Positions 4,271 to 43,584 of a stretch of 52,691 nt of DNA are shown here, one piece after another. The notes under the pieces are model-generated. The model was given only the letters and a program-made list of their open reading frames with translations. It ran no database searches and was not told the origin of the DNA. The stretch comes from an uncultured Gammaproteobacteria bacterium (lineage in GTDB: Bacteria > Patescibacteriota > Patescibacteriia > UBA2196), in assembly GCA_964522515.1 (NCBI GenBank), contig CAZFWC010000003.1, positions 1 through 52,691 of the forward strand, in the 5' to 3' direction. Made by a program: the position numbers and the translations under genes. Every line of letters starts with the position of its first letter. The first letter of the stretch is position 1.

Positions 4271-4303
4271 AAGATTTATGATTTAAGATTTAAGATTTAT
4301 GAA
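4271..4303. repeat. Heptamer microsatellite (A[AT]GATTT)n
   Basis: AAGATTTATGATTTAAGATTTAAGATTTATGAA, intergenic. Confidence 0.8.
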
Positions 4304-4334
4304 TATTTTTTTAAAATTTTTTTAAAATAAAAAA

Positions 4335-4992: not shown

Positions 4993-7572
4993 ATGAATAA
5001 TTATTATTCTGAACCAAGTTTTTTAGAAACAATATTTTCAAACCCAATTATTGTAGTTGGTTTGTTTTTGTTGCTAATAATTATCGCAATTTTTATTGCT
5101 TTAAATATTTGGAAATATTTTGCGCGAAAAGGATTTAATTTACCCACAGAATTTAGAAAAATAATTTTAATGGTTTCAGTTCCAAAAGAATCAACAGCTG
5201 AAAAAACAGAAAATGAAGAAGGAGTAAAAGCAAGTAAAATTCAAGAACAAATTTCCTGGGCAGAAAATTTGTGGTCAAGTTTAGGTGGATTAAAAGAATC
5301 AAAAAGTTTTAAAACTTGGCTTTATGGAAGATTTGATGAATTGTCTTTAGAAATTGTAGCGCAAAACAAAATGATTTATTTTTATGTTGTTGTTCCGCAA
5401 TATTTACAACAATTTATTGAACAACAAATTCAAGCTCAGTACCCGCATTCACAAATTGAACAAGTTGAAGATTATAATATTTTTATTCCAAACGGACAAA
5501 CAAGTTCAGCGTATTTAAAATTAACAAAATCAGATGTTTTTCCATTTAAAACTTTTCGCAAAATGGAAGCAGATCCGTTAAACGCTTTAACAAATATTTT
5601 ATCAAAATTAAATGAAAACGAAGGCGCTGTAATTCAATTAATTATTAGACCAGCAAATAAAAATTGGAGCAGTAAAGCAAGAAAAGTTTCTGATCAAGTT
5701 TTGTCTGGAAAAAAAATAAAAGAAGCAGTTGGCGGTTCAGGTGACAAAGCTTGGTACGATAAAATTGCAAAATTAACAATTAAAGGAGTTGGAAGTGTTG
5801 CTTCAACAATTACGACTTCGCCTGAAAATCAAAAACAAGATTTACAAAATCAAAATCAACTTTCTTCAATGGATCAAGAGTCATTAAAATCAATTGAAGA
5901 AAAATCTTCAAAAGCAGTTGCTCAAGTAAATTTGCGAGTTGTTGTTTCATCTGAAAATGAAATTTCAGTTAAAACAAATTTGGAAAATATCTTAAATTCT
6001 TTTTCACAATATAATATTTACGAATACGGAAACAGTTTTAAAGCAGTAAAAATGTCTAAAAATAATAAATTAATAAATTCTTTTATTCACCGTTCATTAA
6101 TTAAAAATCAAAGTTATGTTTTAAACACTGAAGAAATCGCGTCAATTTTTCATTTTCCTTTGCCAAATTGTCCAACGCCAAATATTCATTGGTTAGGGGC
6201 GCGAAAAGCTCCTGCGCCAGTTAATTCGCCTCAAGAAGGTTTAATTTTAGGAAAAAATATTTATCGCGGAAAAGAAACAATTATTAGAATTAAAAAAGAT
6301 GACAGACGAAGACACGCGTATATTGTTGGAATGACAGGAACTGGAAAATCAAAATTAATGGTAAATATGATAATGCAAGATATTCAAAACGGAGAAGGTG
6401 TTTGTTACATTGATCCTCACGGCGAAGAAGTTGAAGATATTGCTTCAGCAATTCCAAAACACAGAATAAAAGATGTGATTTATTTTGATCCAGCAGACAC
6501 TGAAAGACCAATTGGATTAAATATGCTTGAAGCAAAAACAATTGAACAAAAAGATTTTGCCGCGCAAGAAATGATTCAGATTTTTTATAAAATTGTAAGT
6601 GACCCAGCAATGCTTGGTCCAATGTTTGAACATTATATGAGAAACGCGATGTTGCTTTTAATGGCTGACAAAGAAAATCAAGGAACTATTGTTGAAATTC
6701 CAAGAGTTTTTGTTGATGATGATTTTAGAAAAGCAAAATTAGAAAAATGTGATGACATTTTAGTTAAATCATTTTGGGAAAAAGAATACACAGCTTCGCA
6801 AAAAGGTTCAACTGGCGCAGATATGTTGTCGTATGTGATTTCAAAAGTTGGAAGATTTATTGAAAATGAAATGATGCGAAATGTTATTGGACAGCCGTAT
6901 TCTGGTTTTAATATTCGCGAAATAATGGATAATAAAAAAATTCTTTTAGTAAATTTATCAAAAGGAAAAGTTGGGGAAGTAAATAGTAATTTGTTGGGTT
7001 TAATTTTAGTTTCAAAACTTCAAATGGCTGCAATGGGTCGCGCAGATATTCCTCAAGAACAGCGACACGATTTTTATTTATATATTGATGAATTTCAAAA
7101 TTATGTTACAGATTCAATCGCTGTGATTTTAGCAGAAGCTAGAAAATATCGGTTAAATTTAAATATGGCTCATCAATATATTAGTCAGTTAGTTAAAAAT
7201 AATGACGCGTCAGTTAAGGAAGCGGTTTTTGGAAATGTTGGCACAATGATTTCGTTTCGTGTTGGTGTTGAAGATACTGAAGTTTTAACAAAACAATTTG
7301 CGCCGGTTTTTAATGAATTTGATTTAATGAATATTGAAAAATATAATGCTTACACTCGTTTGTTGGTGAACAACGAGCCGGTGCGTCCGTTTAATATGCA
7401 AGCGTTTCCACCAGTTCAGGGTGATTTAAAAACAGCAGAAATTATTAAAAATTATTCTCGTCAAAAATATGGAAGGCCAAAAGATGTTGTTGAACAAGAA
7501 ATTTTAGAAAGATCTAAACTCGGTCAACAAAGTGAAAATGTTGAAACAAAAGATAAAATGGATTTGAGATAG
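4993..7572 (+). CDS. membrane-anchored TraD/VirD4-like (FtsK/HerA-superfamily) P-loop ATPase, fused form
   Basis: 859 aa. N-terminal TM helix (IIVVGLFLLLIIIAIFIALNIW), then a ~350-aa domain homologous to ORF 27948-29384. Walker A is GMTGTGKS (nt 6328-6351), followed by DPHGEE. Walker B-like is FYLYIDEFQN. ARKYRLNLNMAHQYISQL resembles type IV coupling proteins. Confidence 0.75.
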   Translation: MNNYYSEPSFLETIFSNPIIVVGLFLLLIIIAIFIALNIWKYFARKGFNLPTEFRKIILMVSVPKESTAEKTENEEGVKASKIQEQISWAENLWSSLGGLKESKSFKTWLYGRFDELSLEIVAQNKMIYFYVVVPQYLQQFIEQQIQAQYPHSQIEQVEDYNIFIPNGQTSSAYLKLTKSDVFPFKTFRKMEADPLNALTNILSKLNENEGAVIQLIIRPANKNWSSKARKVSDQVLSGKKIKEAVGGSGDKAWYDKIAKLTIKGVGSVASTITTSPENQKQDLQNQNQLSSMDQESLKSIEEKSSKAVAQVNLRVVVSSENEISVKTNLENILNSFSQYNIYEYGNSFKAVKMSKNNKLINSFIHRSLIKNQSYVLNTEEIASIFHFPLPNCPTPNIHWLGARKAPAPVNSPQEGLILGKNIYRGKETIIRIKKDDRRRHAYIVGMTGTGKSKLMVNMIMQDIQNGEGVCYIDPHGEEVEDIASAIPKHRIKDVIYFDPADTERPIGLNMLEAKTIEQKDFAAQEMIQIFYKIVSDPAMLGPMFEHYMRNAMLLLMADKENQGTIVEIPRVFVDDDFRKAKLEKCDDILVKSFWEKEYTASQKGSTGADMLSYVISKVGRFIENEMMRNVIGQPYSGFNIREIMDNKKILLVNLSKGKVGEVNSNLLGLILVSKLQMAAMGRADIPQEQRHDFYLYIDEFQNYVTDSIAVILAEARKYRLNLNMAHQYISQLVKNNDASVKEAVFGNVGTMISFRVGVEDTEVLTKQFAPVFNEFDLMNIEKYNAYTRLLVNNEPVRPFNMQAFPPVQGDLKTAEIIKNYSRQKYGRPKDVVEQEILERSKLGQQSENVETKDKMDLR

Positions 7573-8261: not shown

Positions 8262-10085
8262 ATGACCTCGCAAGAATTAAGACGAAAATACATAGATTTT
8301 TTTGTAAAAAAAGGGCACACTGAAATTCCTTCTGCTTCTTTGGTTCCTGAAAATGATCCTTCAACTTTATTTATTTCAGCAGGAATGCAACCAATTGCTT
8401 CTTTTTTAATGGGTGAAAAACATCCATCTGGAAATAAATTAGTTAATTCTCAAAAATGTATTCGCACTGATGATATTGACGAAGTTGGTGATAAATTTCA
8501 CCACACTTTTTTTGAAATGCTTGGGCACTGGTCGCTCGGAGATTATTGGAAAAAACAAGCAATAAAAATGAGCTGGGAGTTTTCAACACAAGAGTTGGGT
8601 TTAGATAAAAATAAATTAGCAGTAACGGTTTTTGAAGGAAATGTGAATGCTTCTAAAGATGAAGAATCAATTCAAGTTTGGAAAAGTTTAGGTTTTCCAG
8701 AGCAGAGAATTATTAAATTAAATAAAAAAGAAAATTGGTGGGAGCCAGCAGGTGAAAGTGGTCCGTGTGGTCCAGACACAGAAATGTTTTATTGGACAGA
8801 TAATAAAAATCCTGCGCCAGAAAAGTTTAATCCAGAAGATTCTCGCTGGTTTGAAATCGGAAATGATGTGCTGATGCAATATAATAAAATTGCTAAAAAT
8901 AAATATATTCCAGCTAAACAGAAAAATATTGATAATGGTACAGGTTTTGAAAGGGTTGTAGCTGTTACGAATAATTTAGATGATAATTATTTAACTGATT
9001 TGTTTTTGCCTATTATTAAAAAAATTGAAGAGTTAAGTGAAAAAAATTACAAAAATGTTTCTGAAGAAATTAAAAAAAGTATAAGAATAATTGCAGATCA
9101 TTTAAGAGCAGCGACTTTTATTTTAGCAGACAACACAAAAATTATTCCGTCAAACACAGATCAAGGATATGTTATTAGAAAATTAATTCGCAGAGCAATT
9201 CGGCACGGACGAATGATTGGAATTAAAGAAAATTTTACGCGCAAAATCGCAGAAGTTGTAATTAATTTAATGTCAGAAATTTATCCAGAATTAGAAAAAA
9301 ACAAAAAATTTGTTTTAGATAATTTTGAATTAGAAGAAGAAAAATTTACAAAAACTTTGCAACAGGGGTTAAAAAAATTTCAGAAATTAGAAATCAGAAA
9401 TCAGAAATTAGGACAGAAAAAAATTAGCGGCGCAGAAGTATTTGATTTATTTCAAACTTACGGTTTTCCAATTGAATTAACAAAAGAACTAGCAAGTGAA
9501 AAAGGTTTAGAAGTTGATGAAAAAGGTTTTGAAAAAGAAATGAAAAAACATCAAGAACTTTCTAGAACCGCGACAGCTGGAAAATTTAAAGGTGGTTTAG
9601 CAAATCAATCTGAACAAACAATTAAATATCACACAACAGCGCATTTAATGTTGGCTGCTTTGCGAAAAGTTTTAAATGAAAATATTCAACAAAAAGGTTC
9701 AAATATAAATGAGGAAAGATTGCGATTTGATTTTTCTTATTCTGAAAAAATGACAGATGAACAAAAAGCAGAAGTTGAAAATTTAGTTAATAATTGGATT
9801 AAACAAGATTTAAAAATTATTTGTGAAGAAATGAGTTTGGACGAAGCTAAAAAACAAGGAGCAACCGGAGCTTTTGAAAATAAATACGGAGAAAAAGTTA
9901 AAGTTTTTACAATTGGCTCCTCCTTCGCTAAAGCTACGGCGGACAGGGAAAATAATAATATTGTTAGTAAAGAAATTTGCGGAGGTCCGCACATTAAACG
10001 CACAGGAAATTTAGGAAAATTTAAAATTAAAAAAGAACAATCAAGTTCTGCTGGGATTAGGAGAATTAAAGCAGTTTTGGAATAA
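8262..10085 (+). CDS. alaS: alanine--tRNA ligase, short form lacking the C-terminal C-Ala/DHHA1 region
   Basis: 607 aa. The N-terminal class II catalytic core (FFVKKGHTEIPSASLVP, FHHTFFEMLGHWS) and the editing domain (HTTAHLM, ICGGPH) are present. The ORF ends shortly after the editing domain. Contains repeat insertions at 9381-9413 and 9919-9947. Confidence 0.9.
   Translation: MTSQELRRKYIDFFVKKGHTEIPSASLVPENDPSTLFISAGMQPIASFLMGEKHPSGNKLVNSQKCIRTDDIDEVGDKFHHTFFEMLGHWSLGDYWKKQAIKMSWEFSTQELGLDKNKLAVTVFEGNVNASKDEESIQVWKSLGFPEQRIIKLNKKENWWEPAGESGPCGPDTEMFYWTDNKNPAPEKFNPEDSRWFEIGNDVLMQYNKIAKNKYIPAKQKNIDNGTGFERVVAVTNNLDDNYLTDLFLPIIKKIEELSEKNYKNVSEEIKKSIRIIADHLRAATFILADNTKIIPSNTDQGYVIRKLIRRAIRHGRMIGIKENFTRKIAEVVINLMSEIYPELEKNKKFVLDNFELEEEKFTKTLQQGLKKFQKLEIRNQKLGQKKISGAEVFDLFQTYGFPIELTKELASEKGLEVDEKGFEKEMKKHQELSRTATAGKFKGGLANQSEQTIKYHTTAHLMLAALRKVLNENIQQKGSNINEERLRFDFSYSEKMTDEQKAEVENLVNNWIKQDLKIICEEMSLDEAKKQGATGAFENKYGEKVKVFTIGSSFAKATADRENNNIVSKEICGGPHIKRTGNLGKFKIKKEQSSSAGIRRIKAVLE
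9381..9413. repeat. Heptamer array ([CT]AGAAAT)x4 inside the alaS CDS
   Basis: CAGAAATTAGAAATCAGAAATCAGAAATTAGGA, translated as KLEIRNQKLG. Confidence 0.8.
9919..9947 (+). repeat. Family-1 fragment inside the alaS CDS
   Basis: CCTCCTTCGCTAAAGCTACGGCGGACAGG is identical to 41425-41453. It is translated as SSFAKATADR within the editing-domain region. Confidence 0.9.
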
Positions 10086-12965: not shown

Positions 12966-13478
12966 ATGTCAGAAAATAATAAAAAAAATTTAGAAAATAA
13001 TAAAAAAAAATCTGAAAAAAAAGATGAGGATATTAGTATTGATAAAAAGAAAAAACAAGAATTAGAAAGTGAAGAAACAGCCACAGTAGTTGTTAAAGGT
13101 AAAAAAAAGAAAAAACAAGCGCCTTTTTTAAGAGGCGGAAGAGGTCAAGCTCATATTAAATCATCTTACAATAATACAATTGTTTCAGTCACTGATTTAA
13201 ATGGAGCAGTTTTAATTTGGGCAACTGCTGGAAAATGCGGTTTTAAAGGTCCTAAAAAATCAACACCTTACGCAGCAGGAACAATTATTAAATCACTAGC
13301 AAATAAAATTAAAGAATTAGGGATAAAAGAAGTTGATGTTTTTGTAAAAGGCGTCGGCACTGGTCGAGAGTCGGCAATTCGAGCTTTAGGCACAATTAAT
13401 GTTTCTGTTGTTTCAATTAAAGATGTAACGCCAATTCCTCACGGTGGTTGCAGACCAAAGAAAAAACGAAGAGTTTAA
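12966..13478 (+). CDS. rpsK: 30S ribosomal protein S11 with Lys/Glu-rich N-terminal extension
   Basis: 170 aa. S11 core ([30 protein letters not shown] ... [16 protein letters not shown]) preceded by ~40 low-complexity residues. Confidence 0.9.
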
Positions 13479-13668
13479 ATCGCTTACCCTCCTTCGCTCC
13501 CTAGCAACTCTTTAATTGCTACGGCGCCTGTCCGCCGTAGCTTTAGCGAAGGAGGAGGCAAGCTCCTGTGTTTTTTAAATTTTAAACACAAGAGTTCCTG
13601 CCTGTCGGCAGACAGGTATCCGCCGTAGTCCAGTAGTCCCGAGTACTCGGGATTAGGGGCGAAGACGG
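13479..13668 (+). repeat. Family-1 composite GC-rich palindromic spacer element, copy A (rpsK-rpsD)
   Basis: Modules in order: CCTCCTTCGC..GCTACGGCG/CCGCCGTAGC..AGCGAAGGAGG, the CTCCTGTGTT-loop-AACACAAGAG hairpin, CCTGCCTGTCGGCAGACAGG, CCGCCGTAGTCCAGTAG, CCCGAGTACTCGGG, GCGAAGACGG. Confidence 0.9.
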
Positions 13669-15247: not shown

Positions 15248-15401
15248 TCCTCCTACACCTTCAATCCTAAAAAAATTCTAGCTACGGCGGGCAAGCTCCT
15301 GTGTTTTTTAAATTTTAAATACAAGAGTTCCTGCCTGTCGGCAGACAGGTATCCGCCGTAGTCCAGTAGGATTTTTTAAGGGCGAAGGCGGATAAACAAA
15401 T
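15239..15401 (+). repeat. Family-1 composite spacer element, copy C (rpoA-rplQ)
   Basis: ATCGCCTAA (which contains the rpoA stop), TCCTCCTACACCTTC, GCTACGGCGG, central hairpin, CCTGCCTGTCGGCAGACAGG, CCGCCGTAGTCCAGTAG, GGGCGAAGGCGGATAAACAAAT, then the rplQ ATG. Confidence 0.9.
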
Positions 15402-15752
15402 ATGCGACATCAAAAAACAAAAAAAACATTAGGCAGAAAAACTGGACCGCGAAAAGCATTATTTAAAAATTTATTGCAGTCTTTGATTTTGTATGAAAAA
15501 ATAAAAACAACAGAAATAAAAGCAAAAGAAATTAAACCTTTAATGGAAAAAATGGTTACACGCGCTAAAAATGACTCTTTACACAATCGTCGTGAAATAA
15601 TGAAAATAATTCCAACAAAAAATGCTGTTAAAAAATTATTTGAAGTTGTTGGACCAAAGTACAAAGAAAGAAAAGGCGGGTACTTAAGAATTATAAAATT
15701 AAATCCAAGAAAAGGGGACGGAGCTAAAATGGCAATTATAGAATTTATTTAG
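15402..15752 (+). CDS. rplQ: 50S ribosomal protein L17
   Basis: 116 aa. MRHQKTKKTLGRKTGPRKAL is a typical L17 start. Follows rpoA. Confidence 0.92.
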   Translation: MRHQKTKKTLGRKTGPRKALFKNLLQSLILYEKIKTTEIKAKEIKPLMEKMVTRAKNDSLHNRREIMKIIPTKNAVKKLFEVVGPKYKERKGGYLRIIKLNPRKGDGAKMAIIEFI

Positions 15753-16664: not shown

Positions 16665-16692
16665 AAAAAACTGGTTTTAAGCCAGTTTTTTT
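16665..16692 (+). terminator. bidirectional terminator between rpsI and the Mur ligase gene
   Basis: AAAAAACTGG-TTTTAAG-CCAGTTTTTT. Overlaps the stop codon of the minus-strand gene. Confidence 0.6.
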
Positions 16693-17936
16693 ATTTCCTC
16701 TTTAACAATTTTTCTATCATCCCAATCAATCATTTTTCCATTTGCTAAACACATTTTTTGTTCAGCGCCTTTGCCAGTAAGTAAAATTAAATCATTAGGT
16801 TTTGCAAGTAGCAGAGCTTTTTGAATTGCTTCTCTTCTATCTAATATTTTATATAATTTATTTTCTGGAACTTTAGATGCAACTTGATTAATAATTTCTT
16901 GTGGATTTTCATCGTACGGATCTTCGTTGGTTACAATTACAGTGTTTGCATTTTCTGATGTTAATTTTCCAAGAATTTGTCTGCGAGATTTGTCGCGTCC
17001 TCCACCAGCTGATCCTAAAATATGAATTATTTTATTGTGTTCCACATTTTTTACTGTTTCATATAATTTTTCAATTGCTTTTGGTTCAAAAGCGTAATCA
17101 ATTAAAATTTTAATTTTTAAATCATTTTTAATAAATTCTAATCTGCCGGGTAAAGGTTTTAAATTTTCAACTGCTGATTTGACAGGGTAAATTTTATCTT
17201 CTGCAACTTTTAAAACTTTAGCCACAGCAACACCAGCTAAAATATTATATTTATTATAATCACCGAGTAAATTAATTTTTAAATTATTTAATTTAACATC
17301 TGCATTTGAATTTATTCCGTAAGTTATTTTTTTGTCTGCCCAAAAATTTAAAAAATATTCTGCGTGTTCGTCATCTAAATTTGCAATTATTGTTTTTTTT
17401 ATTTCTAATTTCTTTTTTTTGCATTTAGATAAATATTTAAATAATTTGCCTTTTGTAGTTTTATAATTTTCAAAACTGCCGTGTGATTCAATGTGCTCTG
17501 GATAAAGATTTGTAAAAACTAAAATATCATAATTAATTCCCAAATGTCTGAACTGTTTTATTCCTTCTGAACTTGTTTCAATAATTGCGACTTCACATTT
17601 ATTTTTAACCATTTGTTTTAATAATTTTTGCAAACCAAATCTTCCAAGCATTGTCATTTTTTTATTATTTAACCATTCTTTTTTATTTATTTTAAATAAA
17701 GTAGTTGTGCTCATTCCAACTTTAAAACCTGCTTTTTCTAAAATTTGCGCAATAAAATAGCACGAAGAAGATTTTCCAGTTGTGCCGGTTACTCCAATTA
17801 CAATCATTTTGTTTGATGGATAATTATAAACTAAAGCGCTAATTTTAGCCAAGATCCAATGATAAATTGGCTGTAATTTTTCAAACAGTTTTTTTGGAAT
17901 TATTTTTTTAATTAAATTTAGGAGTTTGTTTATCAT
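16677..17936 (-). CDS. Mur ligase family protein (MurE-like, no N-terminal domain)
   Basis: GVTGTTGKSSS P-loop, ETSSEG, and Mur ligase middle and C-terminal domains. Start moved to the ATG at 17936, which has a GGGGAGAG SD-like upstream. Upstream codons run into the repeat at 17941-18052. Confidence 0.8.
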   Translation of the reverse strand: MINKLLNLIKKIIPKKLFEKLQPIYHWILAKISALVYNYPSNKMIVIGVTGTTGKSSSCYFIAQILEKAGFKVGMSTTTLFKINKKEWLNNKKMTMLGRFGLQKLLKQMVKNKCEVAIIETSSEGIKQFRHLGINYDILVFTNLYPEHIESHGSFENYKTTKGKLFKYLSKCKKKKLEIKKTIIANLDDEHAEYFLNFWADKKITYGINSNADVKLNNLKINLLGDYNKYNILAGVAVAKVLKVAEDKIYPVKSAVENLKPLPGRLEFIKNDLKIKILIDYAFEPKAIEKLYETVKNVEHNKIIHILGSAGGGRDKSRRQILGKLTSENANTVIVTNEDPYDENPQEIINQVASKVPENKLYKILDRREAIQKALLLAKPNDLILLTGKGAEQKMCLANGKMIDWDDRKIVKEEIKKLA

Positions 17937-17940
17937 TTTA

Positions 17941-18052
17941 GAGTCTCTCCCCATTTTCAAGGGGGAGATTAAGAGGGGGTTAATAATTTTAATTAAATAA
18001 TTTATTAACCACCCCCAACCCCTCCTTCAAAAGGAGGGGAGGATATTTTTTT
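17941..18052 (-). repeat. Family-2 triple-hairpin GC-rich element, copy 1
   Basis: GAGTCTCTCCCCATTTTCAAGGGGGAGATTAAGAGGGGGTTAATAATTTTAATTAAATAATTTATTAACCACCCCCAACCCCTCCTTCAAAAGGAGGGGAGG. It spans the junction between the Mur ligase gene and the upstream membrane-protein gene. Confidence 0.9.
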
Positions 18053-19042
18053 GTCAAATTGTTTATAAAAAATTAAACCTAAAGGGAAGTAAAGCCAAAA
18101 AGAGAAAAAACGATAAATCAGCATTACTGAAAGTGATAATTCAAAATTTACACCAAGTGAATTAAAAATTAAAACCATTGCGGCATCAAATGCGCCTACC
18201 CCGCCCGGAATAAATGAAATTAAACCAAATAATCTTCCAAACGCAAAAGCAACAACTCCTAATCCAATTGGAACCAGAGATCCAAAAGCTAAAAATATTA
18301 AAAAAATCGTTAAACCATCAGATAAGAATTTTAAAAATTGCATTATTGCTGGATTTAAAATTTTTATTTTATTATTTTTAAGCCAAGATAAACCTTGATA
18401 AAAATCATTAAGCAATTCTTGAATTCTATCTTTTTGTTTTATTCCGTCTTCAGCTTTGTCAACTTTTTCCGCGAGCCAAACAACTCTTTTGTGCGCTCGC
18501 TCTTTTTTCCCAACAAAAAAGTAAATTGTAAAAATAATAAAACCAATAATTAAAACAAAACCAATAACTGCAATTTTTTGTGTGTGGCCAATATCACCAA
18601 GTTTAAAAAATAAATAAATTAAACTTAAAATTAATAAAATAAAAAAAGCAGAATAATAACATATTACTTCAATCACAATTGACAAAAGCGCTTTGCCTTC
18701 TTTTACTCCTTGTTTTTTAAGTTGTTTTAGAAACCAAATATTTCCAGCAAAACCAAGAGAAGGAATAGTAAAATTTAAAAATAAAACAGTGATTCCGATT
18801 TTAATTAATTTTAAAAATGAAAAATTAGGAATTTTTACAATTTTAAATGTTGACTTATAAACTCCAGCTTGCAAAGAAAAATTTAACAGTTGCGAACCAA
18901 AAGCCAAAGCAAGCCAGTACAATTTTGCTTGACCAAAAAGTTGTCCAATTTCTCGCAGTTCTGAAAATTTAAACAAAACAATAAAAATTGCGATTAATAA
19001 TAAAATCGGAAAAAATATTTTTTTGTTTTTAAAAAAATTCAT
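18005..19042 (-). CDS. polytopic membrane protein, lysyl-PG-synthase-TM/flippase-like (UPF0104-like)
   Basis: 345 aa with ~8 TM helices. Family assignment is tentative. The last ~12 codons (SSPPFEGGVGGG) are encoded by the GC-rich repeat at 17941-18052. Confidence 0.55.
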   Translation of the reverse strand: MNFFKNKKIFFPILLLIAIFIVLFKFSELREIGQLFGQAKLYWLALAFGSQLLNFSLQAGVYKSTFKIVKIPNFSFLKLIKIGITVLFLNFTIPSLGFAGNIWFLKQLKKQGVKEGKALLSIVIEVICYYSAFFILLILSLIYLFFKLGDIGHTQKIAVIGFVLIIGFIIFTIYFFVGKKERAHKRVVWLAEKVDKAEDGIKQKDRIQELLNDFYQGLSWLKNNKIKILNPAIMQFLKFLSDGLTIFLIFLAFGSLVPIGLGVVAFAFGRLFGLISFIPGGVGAFDAAMVLIFNSLGVNFELSLSVMLIYRFFSFWLYFPLGLIFYKQFDKKISSPPFEGGVGGG

Positions 19043-19063
19043 TTTAACTTCCCTTAAAGTGGA

Positions 19064-20155
19064 TTAGAAATTTAAAAATTTATTAAAAATTTTGCCTAGT
19101 TTAAATAAATTGTACCATTTTTTATTTAAAATATAATCAAACGAACCAACAAAATTTATTTCTTTTCCAGTTTGTTCTTTAACAAAACCTTTTTTAAATT
19201 TTGTAATTCCTGTCCAATTTTTTGTTGTTTCTGATTCAATTCCCCAAAAATCATAATATTTATAATTATTTTTTTTAGCCCATTTAATCGCTTCCCATTG
19301 AATCAAATAATTTGGCATTAAATTTCTTTTTTCATTTGATGAAGCTCCGTAAAAATATGTTGCTGTGTTGCCAAAACCGACTACGATAATTGATGAGAGG
19401 GGTTGGTTTTTGTGTTCTGCAAAAAAAAGATTTAAGATTAAAGATTTATGATTTATGATTTTATTTTTATTAAAATAATTTAATAAATTTTCATAATAAT
19501 TTTTATTAAAAATATTTATTTTGTCGCGTTCAGCTGTTTGTTTAATTAAATTATAAAAAATATCAATATTTTTTTCTTGTTTAATTATAATTTCTTTTTT
19601 TTCAGAAAGTCTAATATTGTATCTAGTTTTTTGGCGCATTGATTTTAAAATTTCATCTTCTGATCTTTCTAAATTTAAAATTAAAGTATTTTCAGGTTCT
19701 TTTAAGTTTGTTAGGATTTTAGGAAATTTAAAATTGAAAATTGAAAATTGAAAATTATTACAATAAGGTGGCGCAATTCTAAAAAATATTATTTTTTCTT
19801 TTTTACTAATATTCTTAATTTCTTGAATTAATAATTTAAAAATTTTTGAAATTTTATCATTGTTTGAAAATTGAAAATTGAAAATTGAAAATTTTATAAT
19901 TGGTCCTTTTGCACAATTTAAATAAAATTTTTTATTTGGTAAAGTGCGTTTTACAAACAAAGCAACAGAAATTAATTCATCTTCTTGATAAATCGCAAAT
20001 CTAAATAAATTATTTCCACATTTTTCCTTTTCACCTTTTTCCTTAAATTCCCCCCATTCCCAAGATTGCAAAAAACTAGCCGGAGAGCTGCTTTCAATTA
20101 CAAAATTATTCCATTTGTCTTTAAAGTTTTCATCTGTGATTTGTTTGATTTGCAT
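19064..20155 (-). CDS. FemAB-family peptidoglycan bridge peptidyltransferase (FemX-like)
   Basis: 363 aa. SFLQSWEWGEFK and the C-terminal YDFWGI..KFKKGF motifs are typical of FemX/lipid II aminoacyltransferases. Contains three heptamer-repeat insertions. Confidence 0.8.
   Translation of the reverse strand: MQIKQITDENFKDKWNNFVIESSSPASFLQSWEWGEFKEKGEKEKCGNNLFRFAIYQEDELISVALFVKRTLPNKKFYLNCAKGPIIKFSIFNFQFSNNDKISKIFKLLIQEIKNISKKEKIIFFRIAPPYCNNFQFSIFNFKFPKILTNLKEPENTLILNLERSEDEILKSMRQKTRYNIRLSEKKEIIIKQEKNIDIFYNLIKQTAERDKINIFNKNYYENLLNYFNKNKIINHKSLILNLFFAEHKNQPLSSIIVVGFGNTATYFYGASSNEKRNLMPNYLIQWEAIKWAKKNNYKYYDFWGIESETTKNWTGITKFKKGFVKEQTGKEINFVGSFDYILNKKWYNLFKLGKIFNKFLNF
19427..19460. repeat. Heptamer microsatellite (A[AT]GATTT)n inside the FemX-like CDS
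   Basis: AAGATTTAAGATTAAAGATTTATGATTTATGATT uses the same word set as 4271-4303. Translated on the minus strand as INHKSLILNLF. Confidence 0.8.
19730..19757. repeat. Heptamer array (AAAATTG)x4 inside the FemX-like CDS
   Basis: AAAATTGAAAATTGAAAATTGAAAATTA, translated as NFQFSIFNF. Confidence 0.85.
19864..19894. repeat. Heptamer array (GAAAATT)x4 inside the FemX-like CDS
   Basis: TTGAAAATTGAAAATTGAAAATTGAAAATTT, translated as FSIFNFQFS. Confidence 0.85.
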
Positions 20156-20165
20156 AATTTAAATT

Positions 20166-20753
20166 CTATTTTTTCTTTCCTAAATTTTTTAAAGCGGACT
20201 TAATTATTTCATCTTCATTTTCAATTTCATTTGGAACTTGGCGCAAAGAGTCGCGAATTTCTTGAGGCAAATAACCCAAACTTTGCAAAGCCTCAAAAGC
20301 GCCAGCTTGACCATCAGACGCTAAATCAACTTTTTCATCTTTTCCAACAGGCAAGTTATCTAATTTATTTTTCAACTCAACCACAATTCTTTCTGCTGTT
20401 TTAGTTCCAATTCCAGAAACTTTTTTTAACAAACTTGGGTCGTCTCGCAAAATTGCTTTTTTAATTTCTGATAATTTTGCAATTGATAAAGTTTGTAAAG
20501 CTGATTTTGGCCCAACACCAGAAATTGAAATTAGTAATTCAAAAAATCTTTTTTCATTTTGTGTTTCAAAACCGTAAAGATTTAAAGCATCTTCTCTAAC
20601 ATAAGTGTGAATAAAAAATTCTTTTTCTTTATTGATTTTAAGTTTTTCTAAAATTGGTTCAGTTGTAAAAATTTCAAATCCAATATTGTTCACAATTAAA
20701 GTTAGTGATTTAGTGTTTTTAAATTTAATTGCGCCAGATAAATAAGAAATCAT
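20166..20753 (-). CDS. ruvA: Holliday junction DNA helicase RuvA
   Basis: 195 aa. OB N-terminus (MISYLSGAI) and two HhH motifs (ISGVGPKSA, VSGIGTKTAERIV). Confidence 0.9.
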   Translation of the reverse strand: MISYLSGAIKFKNTKSLTLIVNNIGFEIFTTEPILEKLKINKEKEFFIHTYVREDALNLYGFETQNEKRFFELLISISGVGPKSALQTLSIAKLSEIKKAILRDDPSLLKKVSGIGTKTAERIVVELKNKLDNLPVGKDEKVDLASDGQAGAFEALQSLGYLPQEIRDSLRQVPNEIENEDEIIKSALKNLGKKK

Positions 20754-20761
20754 ATTTTTAA

Positions 20762-20927
20762 TTCTCCCCTCCTTTTCAAGGAGAGTTTTATTATTAGGAC
20801 TTTTTAGAGTCTCTCCCCATTTTCAAGGGGGAGACTAAGAGGGGGTTAATAATTTTAATTAAATTATTTATTAACCACCCCCAGCCCCTCCCTGCCTACC
20901 GGACAGGCAGGCTTGAAAAGGAGGGGA
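20762..20927 (-). repeat. Family-2 element, copy 2, with nested palindromic module and an extra hairpin
   Basis: Same core as copy 1 with few substitutions. CCTGCCTACCGGACAGGCAGG is inserted in the loop of the last hairpin. An extra CTCCCCTCCTTTTCAAGGAGAG hairpin abuts the ruvA ATG. Confidence 0.9.
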
Positions 20928-20971
20928 GATTTAATTTAATCTTACCAAATCAGACTTGAAAAATCAATAAT

Positions 20972-21005
20972 TAAAAAAATAAAAAGCGAGGATTAATTCT
21001 CGCTT
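20972..21005 (-). terminator. intrinsic terminator after ORF 21013-21249
   Basis: Minus strand reads AAGCGAG-AATTAATC-CTCGCTT followed by TTTATTTTTTT. Confidence 0.65.
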
Positions 21006-21012
21006 TGCTGTT

Positions 21013-21249
21013 TTAAAAAATAAATTTAATTTTTTTGATTGTGAATTTTCTAGACACCCAACAATCAGAATTAAAAATTACATTAAGTTTTTTTAAAACT
21101 ATTTGTTTTGTTCTGTAATTAAAAAGAAAATTTAAAAAAGAAAGATTTTTTAATGTAAAGAAAAAATTTTGATTTAGTACAATCTCTTTTTGTGTGTCAG
21201 AAGAAACACCAATAAAATTAATTACCACTAATTTTTTTATTTTAAACAT
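21013..21249 (-). CDS. hypothetical 78-aa protein
   Basis: Strong RBS (AAGGAGGAATT before the ATG) and a hairpin plus T-run terminator directly after the stop codon. No similarity recognised. Confidence 0.4.
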   Translation of the reverse strand: MFKIKKLVVINFIGVSSDTQKEIVLNQNFFFTLKNLSFLNFLFNYRTKQIVLKKLNVIFNSDCWVSRKFTIKKIKFIF

Positions 21250-21314
21250 AATTCCTCCTTGTGTTTTATAAAATTTAATAAGAACTTTTTAAGCTTAAAT
21301 CTTTATTAGTAAAT

Positions 21315-21343
21315 TTGTCAAATTTGAATTAAAAGTATAGAAT
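21315..21343 (+). promoter_or_regulatory. candidate promoter for the 21420-22726 operon
   Basis: TTGTCA-17 nt-TAGAAT. The family-3 hairpin would lie in the 5' UTR. Confidence 0.5.
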
Positions 21344-21363
21344 GAAAGTGGTAGCAACAAACA

Positions 21364-21388
21364 GGCTCCACCCAAGAGGGATGGAGCC
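21364..21388 (+). repeat. Family-3 hairpin
   Basis: GGCTCCACCCAAGAGGGATGGAGCC followed by AAC, 32 nt before the ATG at 21420. Confidence 0.85.
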
Positions 21389-21419
21389 AACTAATAATTT
21401 AAAAGTGTAAGATAAAATT

Positions 21420-22004
21420 ATGTTAGAAAAAATTTTTGGTTCCAGAACCAGAGTAAAATTATTAAAAATATTTTTAACTCATCCGGGTGAGTATTTTTTT
21501 GTGCGTGAATTAGCTCGGCAAACAGAAGAAAGATTAAATTCAATTCGCAGAGAATTAGACAACCTTGTTGATTTTGGTTTGATTCGCGTGGAAGATAAAA
21601 TCAAAATGGATTTGGAAAAAGAAAATGAAAAACAAAAAAAGAAATTTTATACAGTTAATACAGATTTTGTGCTTTATAATGAATTTAAAAATTTAATTTT
21701 AAAATCAAAATTGCTTTTGGAAAAATCTTTAGCAAAAGAAATCAAAAATTTAGGAAATGTAAAATTTTTAATGTTGTCTGGAATTTTTGTTGATGATAAA
21801 AACGCAAAAACAGATTTATTAATTGTTGGTGAATTTAGTAAAATTAAATTAGATAAATTAATTAATAAATTAGAAAAAATTTTTGATCAGGAAATTCGTT
21901 ATACAGCAATGGATAATAAAGAATTTGATTACCGAAATGAAATTACTGACAAATTTTTATTTGAAGTTTTGGAAGGGAAGAAAATAGTTGTAGTTGATAA
22001 ATAA
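21420..22004 (+). CDS. winged-helix (ArsR/MarR-like) transcriptional regulator-like protein
   Basis: 194 aa. N-terminal RTRVKLLKIFLTHPGEYFFVRELARQTEERLNSIRRELDNLVDFGLI looks like a wHTH fold. Confidence 0.6.
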   Translation: MLEKIFGSRTRVKLLKIFLTHPGEYFFVRELARQTEERLNSIRRELDNLVDFGLIRVEDKIKMDLEKENEKQKKKFYTVNTDFVLYNEFKNLILKSKLLLEKSLAKEIKNLGNVKFLMLSGIFVDDKNAKTDLLIVGEFSKIKLDKLINKLEKIFDQEIRYTAMDNKEFDYRNEITDKFLFEVLEGKKIVVVDK

Positions 22005-23979: not shown

Positions 23980-24004
23980 GACTCCACCCAAGAGGGATGG
24001 AGCC
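23980..24004 (+). repeat. Family-3 hairpin
   Basis: GACTCCACCCAAGAGGGATGGAGCC followed by AAC, 23 nt before the secD ATG at 24027. Confidence 0.85.
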
Positions 24005-27947: not shown

Positions 27948-29384
27948 ATGGATTTTCTTTTTAATTTTTTAACTAACGCTGGTCTTGATGCAAGTTCACC
28001 CTTGTCTGTTTTATGGTTTATTTTTAAACACGGAGGATTTATTTTTATTCTAGCTGCTTTATTTTTTGGTTTTAAAGAGATTTGGACTAATTCGCGACAG
28101 GCAAAATACGCTGCTAAATCTGAATGGGTTTATTTAGCAATTGATGTTCCAAAAAATAATGAACAATCTTTTAAAGCAGTGGAACAAATTTTTGCGAATT
28201 TAGCAGGAGCTTCAAAAAATCCAGATACTTTGGATAAATATTGGACAGGTTACCACCAGCCAGCGTTTAGTTTAGAATTAGTTTCAATTGAAGGTTACAT
28301 TCAGTATATTATTCGTTCGCCCAAAGTATTTAGAGATTTAGTTGAAGCCGCAATTTACGCGCAGTATCCTGACGCTCAAATTACTGAAATAGAAGATTAC
28401 ACAAAAGGAATTGATCCGGAAACATTTAAAGAAAAAGGTTACGATCTTTGGGCCGCGCAATTTGGTTTAATAAACGATGAAGCTTATCCAATAAAAACTT
28501 ATCCGCTTTTTGAACATCCAATTTCACAATTAACAGTTGATCCTTTGGCCGCTGTTTTAGAAATTTTTAGCAGAATGAACAAAGGCGAACAAGCTTGGTA
28601 CCAAATTATTATTAAACCAGTTGGCGACAATTGGAAAGAAAAATCTCAAGCAAAAGTTAAAGAACTAATTGGCACTCCAGTTTCAGCTCCCAAGCAAGGA
28701 TTAATTGATAAAACTCTTGACGCGCCAGGAAGATGGGCAGGTCAAGTCGGTGATTTATTTATTCCAGTTGGTGGCAAAGATGATAAAAAAGATGATAAAA
28801 AAATGGAAGTGCCGTCAAAAATGCTTTATTTATCTCCAGGTGAAAAAGCAGCAGTTGAAGCAATTGATCGCAAGACTGACAAAATTGGTTTTATTTGTAA
28901 AATCCGTTACATTTATTTAACTAAAGGAGTAAAGTTAGCTAAAACAAAAGGTGTTTCTGGTTTTATTGGAGCTTTAAAACAATATAATTTATTAAATTCA
29001 AATGGGTTTTATCCAATTGGAGTTACTAAAACAAGCTCTGAGTGGTGGCAGAATTTGTATAAAAAATATGGAGAAAAAGTTGTAACAAAAATTCAGAAAA
29101 AAACTTTAGCAAATTTTAAATCTCGTTCGTCTTGGGCAGGAGCTGATAAAGAAGGCTTTATTTTAAACACAGAAGAATTAGCTTCGCTTTATCATTTTCC
29201 TTTAATGGGAGTTGTTGCGCCAACAGTTAAAACAACAGATGCTAAACGGGGCCAAGCTCCAATGGGTTTGCCAGTTGAAACTGACGAAGTTGTTGAGGAA
29301 AATAATTCCGAGTCCTTGGAAGAAAAAATTGAAATTAATAATGGACAAAAAATAATTGCGCCACCAAGTAATTTACCAATATGA
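27948..29384 (+). CDS. membrane protein homologous to the N-terminal half of ORF 4993-7572
   Basis: ATG at 27948 preferred over the TTG at 27936. TM segment plus a soluble domain. Blocks shared with the 859-aa protein include AQYP[HD][SA]QI.[QE][VI]EDY, W.QIIIKP / VIQLIIRP and NTEE[IL]AS[IL][FY]HFPL. Confidence 0.7.
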   Translation: MDFLFNFLTNAGLDASSPLSVLWFIFKHGGFIFILAALFFGFKEIWTNSRQAKYAAKSEWVYLAIDVPKNNEQSFKAVEQIFANLAGASKNPDTLDKYWTGYHQPAFSLELVSIEGYIQYIIRSPKVFRDLVEAAIYAQYPDAQITEIEDYTKGIDPETFKEKGYDLWAAQFGLINDEAYPIKTYPLFEHPISQLTVDPLAAVLEIFSRMNKGEQAWYQIIIKPVGDNWKEKSQAKVKELIGTPVSAPKQGLIDKTLDAPGRWAGQVGDLFIPVGGKDDKKDDKKMEVPSKMLYLSPGEKAAVEAIDRKTDKIGFICKIRYIYLTKGVKLAKTKGVSGFIGALKQYNLLNSNGFYPIGVTKTSSEWWQNLYKKYGEKVVTKIQKKTLANFKSRSSWAGADKEGFILNTEELASLYHFPLMGVVAPTVKTTDAKRGQAPMGLPVETDEVVEENNSESLEEKIEINNGQKIIAPPSNLPI

Positions 29385-31174
29385 ATAATGATAATCAAAT
29401 AACTTATTTTGCAAAAACAAACTTTCGTAATCAAAACAAAAAGTTTGGAATTATGCTTGACGACCGTCGCAGGCATATGTATGTTGTTGGGAAAACTGGT
29501 GTTGGAAAAACAGTGCTTTTAAAAAATATGATTATTCAAGATATTGAAAACGGACACGGTTTAGCTTATCTTGATCCTCACGGGGATGATGTTCAGGATG
29601 TTTTAGAATGTATTCCTTCAAGCAGAATAAATGATGTTGTTTATTTTAATCCAGCTGACACTTCTTACCCAATTGCTTTTAATGTTTTGGAAAATGTTAA
29701 TCCAGAATACAAGCATTTGGTGGCTGACGGTTTAATGGGAGTGTTCACAAAAATTTGGGCAAATCTTTGGTCAGCAAGAATGGAACACATTTTGCGAAAT
29801 TGTATTTTAGCTTTGCTTGATACACCGGGAAATACTTTATTAGGAATTATGCGTTTGTTAGTTGATAAAGATTTTCGCAGAAAAATTGTAAATAATGTAA
29901 CTGATCCAATTGTTAAATCTTTTTGGATTGATGAATACGCAAATTGGAACGACCGTTTTAGAATTGAAGCGATTCAACCAATTCAAAATAAAATTGGACA
30001 ATTTTTATCTTCGTCAATTATTAGAAATATTGTTGGACAAGCAAAATCAACTGTTGACATTCGTAAAATTATGGATGACAGAAGAATACTTTTAATGAAT
30101 TTGTCAAAAGGCAAAATTGGAGAAGATAATTCTAATTTGTTAGGAGCAATGATGATTACTAGATTACAATTAGCCGCAATGTCAAGAGTTGATATTTCTG
30201 AAAACGAAAGAAACGATTATTTTTTATATGTTGATGAAATGCAAAATTTTGTAACAGAATCTTTTGCTGATATTTTATCAGAAGCCCGAAAATATCATTT
30301 AAATTTAATTTTGTCTCATCAATATATTGCTCAACTTTCTACGCCAGAAAGTTCAAAAGTTCGTGACGCGATTTTTGGAAATGTTGGAACTATTATTTGT
30401 TTTAGAGTTGGCGCGGCTGACGCGTATTTTTTACTTAAAGAATTTGAACCGTATTTTACTGAAGAAGATTTGGTTAATTTAAATAAATATGAAATTTATT
30501 TAAAATTATTAATTAATGGAGTTGCCTCACGACCGTTTTCTGCTTCAACTTTAGCGCCGTTTTTAGAATCTAAAAAAAGTTTGAAAAATATGGAAAAAGT
30601 AATTAAAGTTTCGCGCGAAAGATACACAAATCCAAAACAAGAGGTTGAAGAAAAAATTATTCGTTGGCTTGATTTAGAAGATACATTTAAAACTCAAGCT
30701 GATGAAAGTAAATTATCTGGAGGTGAAGTAATGTTTAAAAAAGGTTTTGGAACTGAAAAATTAGTTGATCAAAAAAGAAAAAAAATAGAAAATAATCCCG
30801 AGTACTTAGAGCAAAAAAAAGTTGAACAAAAAAAAGAGCCAGAGAATCAAAACAAATTAGAAGCAATTTGTGACGCGTGCGGAAAAACAACTTATTTGTC
30901 TTTTGTTCCACAACCGCATCTTAATGTTTTTTGTAAAGATTGTTTGCGTTTGTTTAAAAATGGTAAAATTGATGTTTCAAAATTAGAATTTAAAAATTTA
31001 GATTTGATTAAAAAAAATACAATATTAGATCAAACAAAAATTAAAAATTCAGTTTCTGAAACTGATAAAAAAATAAAATCAGTTAGTCCTATGAAATCTA
31101 CAAATGAAATTCGTGGCACTCAGAAATTTCACGGAACGAATTTTTTACAGCCAAATGAAAAAGTAAAATTTTAA
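29381..31174 (+). CDS. TraD/VirD4-like P-loop ATPase (split form) with C-terminal CxxC-x17-CxxC zinc ribbon
   Basis: 597 aa with an ATGA overlap to the upstream gene. RRRHMYVVGKTGVGKT (Walker A, nt 29489-29512), DPHGDD, YFLYVDEMQN, ARKYHLNLILSHQYIAQL. Collinear with the C-terminal half of ORF 4993-7572. The tail CDACGK-x17-CKDC is at nt 30869-30943. Confidence 0.78.
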   Translation: MNNDNQITYFAKTNFRNQNKKFGIMLDDRRRHMYVVGKTGVGKTVLLKNMIIQDIENGHGLAYLDPHGDDVQDVLECIPSSRINDVVYFNPADTSYPIAFNVLENVNPEYKHLVADGLMGVFTKIWANLWSARMEHILRNCILALLDTPGNTLLGIMRLLVDKDFRRKIVNNVTDPIVKSFWIDEYANWNDRFRIEAIQPIQNKIGQFLSSSIIRNIVGQAKSTVDIRKIMDDRRILLMNLSKGKIGEDNSNLLGAMMITRLQLAAMSRVDISENERNDYFLYVDEMQNFVTESFADILSEARKYHLNLILSHQYIAQLSTPESSKVRDAIFGNVGTIICFRVGAADAYFLLKEFEPYFTEEDLVNLNKYEIYLKLLINGVASRPFSASTLAPFLESKKSLKNMEKVIKVSRERYTNPKQEVEEKIIRWLDLEDTFKTQADESKLSGGEVMFKKGFGTEKLVDQKRKKIENNPEYLEQKKVEQKKEPENQNKLEAICDACGKTTYLSFVPQPHLNVFCKDCLRLFKNGKIDVSKLEFKNLDLIKKNTILDQTKIKNSVSETDKKIKSVSPMKSTNEIRGTQKFHGTNFLQPNEKVKF

Positions 31175-31192
31175 AAATTTCTAATTCATATG

Positions 31193-31225
31193 AGTTGGCT
31201 CCATCGCTCTCGCGTGGAGCCAACT
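31193..31225 (+). repeat. Family-3-related hairpin
   Basis: AGTTGGCTCCATCGCTCTCGCGTGGAGCCAACT. Confidence 0.7.
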
Positions 31226-31268
31226 TGTTAAGTCAACTAATAAAAATTTTTTACTGAAATAACAAATA

Positions 31269-31327
31269 GACTCCACCCCCCCAACCTGCCCGCCAGTGAT
31301 CTTTGGCAGGCGGGGAGGGATGGAGCC
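31269..31327 (+). repeat. Family-3 hairpin with nested GC-rich palindrome in its loop
   Basis: GACTCCACCCCCCCAACCTGCCCGCCAGTGATCTTTGGCAGGCGGGGAGGGATGGAGCC followed by AAC, 24 nt before the ruvX ATG. Confidence 0.85.
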
Positions 31328-31350
31328 AACAATCAGGTGGAGAAACTTAT

Positions 31351-36468: not shown

Positions 36469-36627
36469 TTAAGTTTTCCGCCTTCGCCCATAATCCCGAG
36501 TACTCGGGACTACTGGACTACGGCGGATACCTGTCTGCCGACAGGCAGGAAATTTTAATGTTTTTAAATAAAAAATTTTAATCTAAAGATATTATTGTTA
36601 GAGTTTGAGCGAAGGAGGTTAGCGACT
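36469..36627 (-). repeat. Family-1 composite spacer element, copy E (upstream of dnaB, minus orientation)
   Basis: Read on the minus strand: AGTCGCTAACCTCCTTCGC...CCTGCCTGTCGGCAGACAGG..CCGCCGTAGTCCAGTAGTCCCGAGTACTCGGG..GGGCGAAGGCGGAAAACTTAA, then the dnaB ATG. Confidence 0.9.
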
Positions 36628-43415: not shown

Positions 43416-43584
43416 GTCGCAACCCTCCTTCGCTCTCTAACAACTTTTTAATTGCTACGGCGGGCAAGCTCCTGTGTTTTTTAAATTTTAAACACAAGAG
43501 TTCCTGCCTGTCGGCAGACAGGTATCCGCCGTAGTCCAGTAGTCCCGAGTACTCGGGACTAGGAACAAAGGCGGAAAACTCAAT
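43416..43584 (+). repeat. Family-1 composite spacer element, copy D (PilX-like gene to pilM)
   Basis: GTCGCAACCCTCCTTCGC..GCTACGGCGG..central hairpin..CCTGCCTGTCGGCAGACAGG..CCGCCGTAGTCCAGTAGTCCCGAGTACTCGGG..AAAGGCGGAAAACTCAAT, then the pilM ATG. Long stretches are near-identical to copy A. Confidence 0.9.

Follow-up and report, generated by a model that had tools for sequence, protein, structure and literature searches.

Two repeat copies and their gene neighbourhood

The window, as we call the whole stretch of 52,691 nucleotides (52.7 kb) that was analysed, has a GC content of about 28%. Its core genes, assigned with Pfam, include Ddl, CysRS, CorA, AlaRS, a ribosomal-protein/RpoA block, SecDF, DnaB, RecR and the type IV pilus. 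Homologues of its proteins bear the labels Parcubacteria or Patescibacteria, and lake-water metagenomes contain the same DNA. The features around the two copies of the repeat are collected in Table 1; every gene there lies on the minus strand, which corrects the preliminary description of this DNA. A search of the sequence for tRNA and tmRNA found none, and Rfam returned 0 matches over the whole window at the gathering threshold. A permissive Rfam scan of positions 17700-21500 gave only sub-threshold matches to microRNA precursors, i.e. to a generic long hairpin. Phage records contain no match to the element.

Table 1. Position of genes, repeat copies and repeat parts in the window
Feature	Position	Strand	Remarks
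78-aa ORF	21013-21249	minus	upstream of ruvA
ruvA	20166-20753	minus	ATG at 20753
FemAB-family gene	19064-20155	minus	
LPG_synthase_TM membrane-protein gene	18005-19042	minus	345 aa; Pfam domain ends at residue 322
Mur ligase gene	16677-17936	minus	ATG at 17936
Copy 1, short form	17936-18041	minus	106 nt; between LPG_synthase_TM and Mur ligase genes
H1 unit of copy 1	17946-17978	plus	TCTCCCC / loop ATTTTCAAG / GGGGAGA / TTA / AGAGGGG
H2	17975-18016		G/C-clamped AT-rich stem-loop GGGGGTTAATAA...TTATTAACCACCCCC between both units; from inverted repeats and fold
H3 unit of copy 1	18009-18039	minus	CCCCTCC / TTTTGAA / GGAGGGG / TTG / GGGGTGG; T·A triplet
C-terminal tail and stop	18005-18043	minus	(S)SPPFEGGVGGG; repeat-encoded
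Copy 2, long form	20763-20929	minus	167 nt; presumed ruvA 5' UTR
Extra H3-like hairpin	20764-20785	minus	CTCTCC TTGAAAA GGAGGGGAG (gene strand); pairs with 5' end of long form
H1 unit of copy 2	20812-20844	plus	perfect triplex unit; loop 2 is CTA
Nested palindrome CCTGCCTACCGGACAGGCAGG	20891-20911		junction of H3 hairpin loop and 3' arm; placement ambiguous by 1-2 nt

Some other sequences of the window have peculiarities of their own. The 78-aa ORF and about 80 nt upstream of it are 95% identical at the DNA level to the related L032, while the neighbour genes are 76-83% identical; the ORF differs from L032 by 6 synonymous and 6 non-synonymous codon changes, has no match in Pfam or Rfam, and may be non-coding for protein. 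Two diverged paralogues of a TraG/VirD4/TrwB-like coupling protein (4993-7572 and 29381-31174), whose DNA repeats are 71-79% identical, are set in an otherwise housekeeping region. An AT-rich short tandem-like repeat of the AAGATTTATGATTT type occurs inside the FemAB-family gene (19427-19491) and again at 4271-4321; the alignment of the FemAB-family gene to L032 has 120 gap columns.

The two copies of the repeat are 97% identical over 90 nt (17936-18025 and 20802-20891), and RNAfold predicts exactly three hairpins for copy 1 (-45.8 kcal/mol, z = -4.2). This agrees with the original claim of about 100 nt common to two triple-hairpin copies. The boundaries were taken from the alignment of one copy with the other and from the loose ends of metagenome contigs, which fall at 17936/18041 in copy 1 and at 20801-2/20929 in copy 2. 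For the 21-mers of H1 and H3, 0 chance matches are expected (100 shuffles). Read on the gene strand, the short form consists of an H3 unit, the AT-rich H2 and an H1 unit; its inverted units are imperfect and about 40 nt long. In the long form the H3 unit with its nested palindrome is followed by H2, the H1 unit, a spacer and the extra H3-like hairpin, and the arms pair into one closed structure (-85.3 kcal/mol, z = -8.4). The long form has terminal inverted repeats of 23 nt that are 96% complementary (20758-20780 and 20912-20934). The hairpin before ruvA, which had been described as an addition, is the 3' end of this form. A long form with a trailing half-hairpin is also present at locus L041; L038 carries one from a sister lineage with a large central loop, its own trailing (half-)hairpin and no CCTGCC insert.

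The alignment shows copy 2 to be copy 1 with an additional 21-nt palindrome, which separates CCCCTC from CTTGAAAAGGAGGGG of the last hairpin. The nesting of a CCTGCC module in this hairpin had been claimed and is real, only that the insert sits at the junction of the loop and the 3' arm and not in the middle of the loop. The orthologous copy at the ruvA site of L030-L033 keeps hairpin 3 intact and has no CCTGCC..GGCAGG insert, and the palindrome is therefore a secondary insertion. In L030-L033 another palindrome (AGTTCCAAAGAGCCAGTGGCTCTTTGGAAC) lies between the hairpin and the next G-run, and the central loop is larger. The nested composite recurs, with an insert that differs by 1 nt, at the unrelated locus L041. 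Therefore, the view that palindromic modules insert into each other holds as far as a secondary insertion is concerned, while the nesting need not be an independent event at the ruvA site. Either the composite at L041 was copied whole or the loop site is a preferred target.

Two other palindromic families occur in the window. A hairpin family of the form GGCTCCACCC-AAGA-GGGATGGAGCC is found at 21364-21388, 23984-24004, 31194-31225 and 31267-31331; the last of these copies is a second case of nesting, with a palindrome CCTGCCCGCC...GGCAGGCGGG in its loop. A different composite G/C-rich family, with modules CCTGCCTGTCGGCAGACAGG, CCCGAGTACTCGGG and GCTACGGCGG, occupies 13437-13668, 15277-15414, 36478-36550 and 43416-43587 as well as 9918-9947 and 41424-41453. 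It fills intergenic gaps in the ribosomal-protein/RpoA block and in other operons, and it frequently has GAAGGCGGA as its end, located 14-20 nt 5' of a start codon.

Triplex-motif units and their dispersal

Each half of the element is a predicted triplex motif of the BoxC/PIT type, i.e. a hairpin followed by a mirrored third strand, which the preliminary description missed. The ViennaRNA folds comprise secondary structure only, and the triplex assignment follows a sequence rule: a pyrimidine arm, a Watson-Crick purine arm and a third strand that is antiparallel to the purine arm, all triplets being of the types G·G:C, A·A:T or T·A:T. In an ITxF-like scan H1 of copy 1 comes out as a perfect triplex unit of the class-II purine motif. 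H3 of the same copy, which codes for most of a protein tail (see below), is also perfect. Together with the H1 unit of copy 2, these are the only perfect triplex motifs with 7-nt stems in the 52.7-kb window; 30 dinucleotide shuffles contained 0. Two units of about 33 nt (oligo sequences TCTCCCCATTTTCAAGGGGGAGATTAAGAGGGG and CCCCTCCTTTTGAAGGAGGGGTTGGGGGTGG), a G/T-type H3 and a G/A-type H1, form the element as an inverted doublet around an AT-rich spacer, and H2 is made up of this spacer and the third-strand segments of both units. The H3-type unit is always paired with an H1-type unit in the window, L030, L038, L041, L042 and L045.

An exact scan of GTDB genomes for the 21-nt H1 hairpin, in a representative set that does not include the source genome, gave 29 loci in highly diverse phyla, among them Vibrio, Photobacterium, Pirellulales, Chloroflexi, Flavobacteriales, Berkelbacteria and Nomurabacteria. 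GAGGGGG, the mirror of the purine arm GGGGGAG, follows 24 of 31 H1 hairpins within 40 nt, where the background rate is 0.4%. Likewise, in hairpin 3 GGAGGGG is followed by GGGGTGG. The correct third strand is present in 63 of the 162 pyrimidine/purine hairpins of the fetched loci, and the A/T position of the third strand co-varies with the purine arm across about 8 stem types; this hairpin set is biased because the loci were picked by pattern.

Several observations concern related units in other genomes. Extra small palindromes are found in loop 2 of triplex units from Chloroflexi, Pirellulales and Parcubacteria (L012, L015, L021, the ruvA site of L030-L033, and a loose end after 20834 in run X3), one recurring type having a GCCAGTGGC centre. 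Among plasmid records, only H1-like units of Photobacterium sp. GJ3 match; its 1.69-Mb record NZ_CP073579.1 has 26 matches to the H1 unit, the best with about 90% identity. Vibrio jasicida (L005) has H1-like units at intervals of 200-850 nt, and this array looks similar to integron cassette sites.

Logan contigs of four lake metagenomes were placed on either copy and their depths summed to give a word depth. This depth was 7-9.5 in the flanks and 300-390 in the H1 unit over the four metagenomes, about 150-185 in the H3 unit, and about 90-135 in the nested palindrome in three runs, the fourth, X3, having about 23. The H1 unit thus reaches up to about 40 times and the nested palindrome about 13 times the depth of the flanks; because whole communities contribute, such ratios are upper bounds for one genome. 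Each run has 18 to 38 contigs on the stretch, of which roughly half continue into unrelated flanks. Further loci in AT-rich relatives came from an exact-pattern scan of JGI metagenomes: the element follows a sigma/anti-sigma gene pair (L041), tsaE (L046) and an S1-domain gene (L039), and adjoins a secreted-protein gene (L038). The proposal of a multi-copy family was therefore correct, and a local duplication is rejected as the origin of the pair, since many copies have foreign flanks in the metagenomes and at other loci. Two copies per 52.7 kb would extrapolate to tens in a CPR-sized genome. A search of the literature on palindromic repeats of CPR/Parcubacteria found nothing relevant.

The element of L032 shares 91% identity with that of the window, and all stem and third-strand bases are unchanged; this compares with 76-83% for the neighbour genes and 62-71% for their third codon positions. 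Some variants are shared within a genome, GAAAATGGGGAG by both window copies and GAAAAGGGGGAG by both copies of L032. This sharing and the conservation of the stems would fit either concerted evolution among the copies or selection on the fold. A clean empty site was not found; L034-L037, which form a third lineage, carry unrelated palindromes of the ...GGGATGACA type at both sites.

Pfam detected no transposase, Y1_Tnp included, among the approximately 50 genes of the 52.7-kb window, and there is no IS element in it. The copies examined show no consistent target-site duplication and provide no pair of donor and empty site. TTTAAT abuts copy 2 on both sides (20757-20762 and 20930-20935). It may mark a target-site duplication, or it may match by chance in DNA so rich in A and T; nothing comparable flanks copy 1, L030, L038 or L041. 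The mobility of the element is therefore deduced from its distribution only. One contig of run X1 joins 20761 to 21013 and omits the ruvA leader; its support on one side is 21 nt, and it was not relied on.

Gene ends, leaders and coding sequences

The 345-aa ORF of the LPG_synthase_TM protein ends with ...KKISSPPFEGGVGGG and a stop; the gene strand reads ...YKQFDKKI-SSPPFEGGVGGG-TAA. The codons that derive from the repeat start at the last base of the first Ser codon of the tail, so that the repeat contributes the last 11-12 codons, and the TAA (18007-18005) falls within the stem of the middle hairpin, H2. Among about 47 full-length orthologues only two have the tail, namely the near-identical P0001 and P0002 (80% identity; C-terminus SSPPFQGGAGGG). 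The other approximately 45, among them P0003 (81% identity), end near ...YKQFEK or ...YKQLDK. The genomes of P0002 (L030-L033) carry the repeat at both equivalent sites. The fact that only repeat-bearing lineages have the tail means that it is repeat-encoded and lineage-specific. The comparison of C-termini thereby upholds the earlier claim that the repeat donates the C-terminus and the stop of this protein; the objection that orthologues might share the GGVGGG tail independently of the repeat does not apply, because P0002 has the repeat at the same site. Where L034 has its TAA, the aligned codon is AAA in the window and CAA in L031. The repeat may have replaced the former end of the gene, or else a repeat was already present and the stop codon upstream of it was lost.

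The second contribution claimed for the repeat was a Shine-Dalgarno (SD) sequence for the Mur ligase and ruvA genes. SD-like motifs are indeed present at both places: GGGGAGAG lies 10 nt 5' of the Mur ligase ATG, and the 3' arm of the extra hairpin is an SD-like GGAGG situated 10-14 nt before the ATG of ruvA. An SD-like motif, meaning one of the GGAG/GAGG/AGGA type located 7-18 nt 5' of the start codon, occurs in 6 of the 50 genes of the window, and two of these six are derived from the repeat. L034-L037 lack an SD before their ruvA and Mur ligase orthologues, and in copy 2 no start codon follows GGGGAGAG. The G-rich arms look SD-like because of their own composition. Taken together, the small number of SD genes, the SD-less orthologues and the GGGGAGAG without a start codon in copy 2 argue that the donation of a ribosome-binding site is weak and probably incidental, with an effect on translation still possible. 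Most gene leaders in the window are plain A/T, and from its sequence the organism seems to rely little on Shine-Dalgarno pairing.

The hairpins were also considered as intrinsic terminators. No T-run follows them on the gene (minus) strand; terminator-like matches are found on the plus strand only, where a T-run comes after hairpin 3. With the T-runs on the non-transcribed strand, the hairpins are not terminators and this reading was rejected. The upstream ORF has a separate canonical terminator at 21006-20983.

Single units are also found in frame inside genes of relatives. In PheT of L047 the unit reads ...LGIK-PPLNLPLEKGER-IVEV...; in Xth of L048 there are about 25 additional residues between conserved blocks in comparison with the structure 3g91. 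The GT4 glycosyltransferase of L040, a relative with 28% GC and a gene that has no orthologue in the window, contains SPPIFKGGLGGV and SLPIFKGEIKRGL, neither of which is present in PimB'. The inserts in PheT, Xth and GT4 are missing from PDB homologues and from closer orthologues. Among 15 aligned GT4 orthologues, only the 72%-identical P0052 shares the first insert, and the second position has differing repeat-like inserts in at least 8 lineages. As we read the sequence, the unit has four open frames out of six.

Palindromic families other than the present one also seem to have entered genes of related CPR. TsaD and TsaE (L046, 401-1651 and 1756-2262) and GT4 contain several in-frame repeat-like inserts, for example ...DSRFRGNDIRK..., ...IPAQAGIQ... 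and ...TPSPSLKMRGDK..., which recur at the same loop positions across lineages.

Origin of the element and known repeat systems

The explanation that we consider likely is that of a non-autonomous, dispersed doublet of triplex motifs, i.e. selfish or structural DNA. Such an element would multiply to tens of copies in a Parcubacteria chromosome of about 28% GC and land in the short intergenic spaces of core operons. Single units would be able to land in frame in tolerant gene loops because four of their six frames are open. At the first site the membrane-protein ORF reads 11-12 codons into the repeat, up to the TAA in its AT-rich centre; at the second site the ruvA leader is filled by the long form with its terminal inverted repeats. 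Hairpin-shaped inserts in the unit loops would preserve the geometry of the fold. Copying may occur by a fold-back process on single-stranded DNA at replication or repair, or by an enzyme that acts in trans from a gene elsewhere. Neither the protein tail nor the SD-like arms would be selected functions; both would be by-products. A counterpoint to this selfish-DNA reading is the strong conservation of the stems, which could reflect a selected function of the RNA or DNA.

It is unlikely, in our opinion, that the element is a selected cis-acting RNA of the ruvA-femAB-LPG_TM-mur operon, which like REP would protect mRNA ends or adjust relative expression, and whose hairpins would tune the translation of ruvA and the Mur ligase by sequestering the SD-like GGAGG. 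The orientation of both window copies, L041 and L046, which is that of the upstream gene, would suit such a role, and so would the folds, far stabler than those of shuffled sequences (z = -4.2 and -8.4), and the complete (100%) conservation of the stems while third codon positions are 62-71% identical. The element also begins a few nt past a putative promoter-like TTGATT-17-TAAGAT, which is conserved in L030. However, the copies at L038 and L039 are antisense to the neighbour gene, units lie inside coding sequences as well, the sites in L034-L037 have unrelated palindromes and no SD, and of 50 genes only 6 have an SD-like motif. Rfam gave no match, and PIT elements are without promoter or terminator activity in E. 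coli (PMC4666352).

Copying in trans by a transposase encoded elsewhere, either a RAYT-like HUH/Y1 enzyme or that of an end-matched IS, would make the element a REPIN or MITE. The inverted doublet of short palindromic units with a spacer is the architecture of a REPIN, the long form has 23-nt terminal inverted repeats with TTTAAT on both sides, and the within-genome variants GAAAATGGGGAG and GAAAAGGGGGAG suggest recent copying or conversion. Nevertheless, we regard this origin as unlikely: the units have no GTAG or CGTC tag, neither Y1_Tnp nor another transposase was found among the approximately 50 genes of the window, the other copies have no consistent target-site duplication, the element is not strictly extragenic, and the unit type occurs in many phyla, whereas REPINs are lineage-specific. 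There is practically no chance that the copies are a local duplication, or two ordinary intrinsic terminators that belong to no family. The copies do lie 2.9 kb apart in one operon, and a plus-strand T-run does follow hairpin 3, but many copies exist elsewhere, the T-run is on the non-transcribed strand, and the upstream ORF has its own terminator.

A wider proposal, which must be called quite unlikely, sees in the units an old self-propagating DNA that crosses phyla, with the fold as the substrate of copying (fold-back or template switch at forks or in repair gaps), in-frame colonisation of genes in CPR, and loop inserts that must be hairpins. If this were true, CPR would have taken an RPE-like turn in which essential genes (PheT, TsaD/TsaE, Xth, GT4 and the terminus of the membrane protein) are colonised in frame; furthermore, loop 1 or loop 2 would tolerate only hairpin inserts, which would explain the nesting.

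The preferred reading, a dispersed doublet of triplex motifs, would tie the G/C-rich hairpin islands of AT-rich CPR genomes to the BoxC/PIT/TMECO repeat class of E. coli. In CPR the units go beyond intergenic DNA, and core proteins are lengthened or interrupted in frame, as with Rickettsia palindromic elements. This affects gene calling and the comparison of protein lengths in metagenome-assembled genomes, where repeat-derived tails or loops such as SSPPFEGGVGGG or PPLNLPLEKGER are not functional motifs. The element may also help to explain assembly breaks at such sites, and its many presence/absence states are a natural data set on how triplex-motif repeats multiply.

PIT elements are a rediscovery of BoxC, and the class was later investigated under the name TMECO in E. 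coli (Holder et al. 2015, PMC4666352). The TMECO pattern is CCCTCNCCC N3-6 GGGNGAGGG N3 GGGNGAGGG with 9-nt stems, and the loops of ITxF are 1-6 nt (PMC4666352). As an isolated single strand TMECO forms a stable triplex in vitro, and none was detected in vivo; PIT/TMECO lack promoter and terminator activity in E. coli and are linked to variable intergenic regions (PMC4666352). E. coli K-12 has five inverted pairs of TMECO, each always of type A plus type B (PMC4666352). The present element resembles this class in its C-rich arm, complementary G-rich arm and mirrored third strand with A or T opposite A. It is likewise dispersed, multi-copy and arranged in inverted heterotypic pairs, sits at intergenic sites that vary between relatives, and has no known mobility gene. 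Unlike TMECO, it has 7-nt stems (CTCCCCC/GGGGGAG/GAGGGGG and CCCCTCC/GGAGGGG/GGGGTGG) and not the 9 nt of CCCTCNCCC; its loop 1 of 7-9 nt departs from the TMECO/ITxF definitions, and the strict pattern does not match. The scan of Hoyne & Maher (2000, 2002) allowed loops of 0-10 nt and worded the perfect-triplet stem as ">7 nt"; the units lie within this loop limit, and their 7-nt stems are borderline. The host here is an AT-rich CPR, further palindromes are nested in the loops, and whereas TMECO is always intergenic in E. coli, the element overlaps a gene end and occurs in frame inside genes of relatives.

REP units, as they are introduced in PMC3733652, carry a GTAG or CGTC tetranucleotide at one end. 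The units of the present element have neither; their ends are CTCCCC or CCCCTCC on one side and GAGGGGG or GGGGTGG on the other, and they obey the triplex mirror rule, which REPs do not need. Similar to REPINs are the two inverted palindromic units around a spacer, the long hairpin, the tens of copies and the existence of single units; the mosaic with other palindromic modules resembles BIMEs, and the terminal inverted repeats of the long form (23 nt, 96% complementary) resemble a MITE. In contrast to REPINs, no RAYT gene was seen in the 52.7-kb window, and the element is not strictly extragenic.

Two further systems can be compared by description. Rickettsia palindromic elements (RPE) reportedly insert in frame into protein-coding genes, as Ogata et al. 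described in 2000. They are AT-rich, 100-150 bp long, and add peptide segments in tolerant loops or termini in a small AT-rich genome; to our knowledge they are confined to Rickettsia. The element shares with RPE a palindromic repeat in frame in ORFs, as a C-terminal tail in the window and as internal inserts in relatives, but most of its insertions into coding sequence are single units, G/C-rich and about 36 nt long. The mobile GC clusters of yeast mitochondria are G/C-rich palindromic modules scattered in a very AT-rich genome; they are nested in one another and sometimes lie within genes. They differ from the element in their location in an organelle genome and in their sequence families, and we know of no triplex mirror rule described for them. 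Judged by its sequence, the element belongs with the BoxC/PIT triplex-motif repeats as their variant in CPR, built as a REPIN-like doublet and RPE-like in coding regions.
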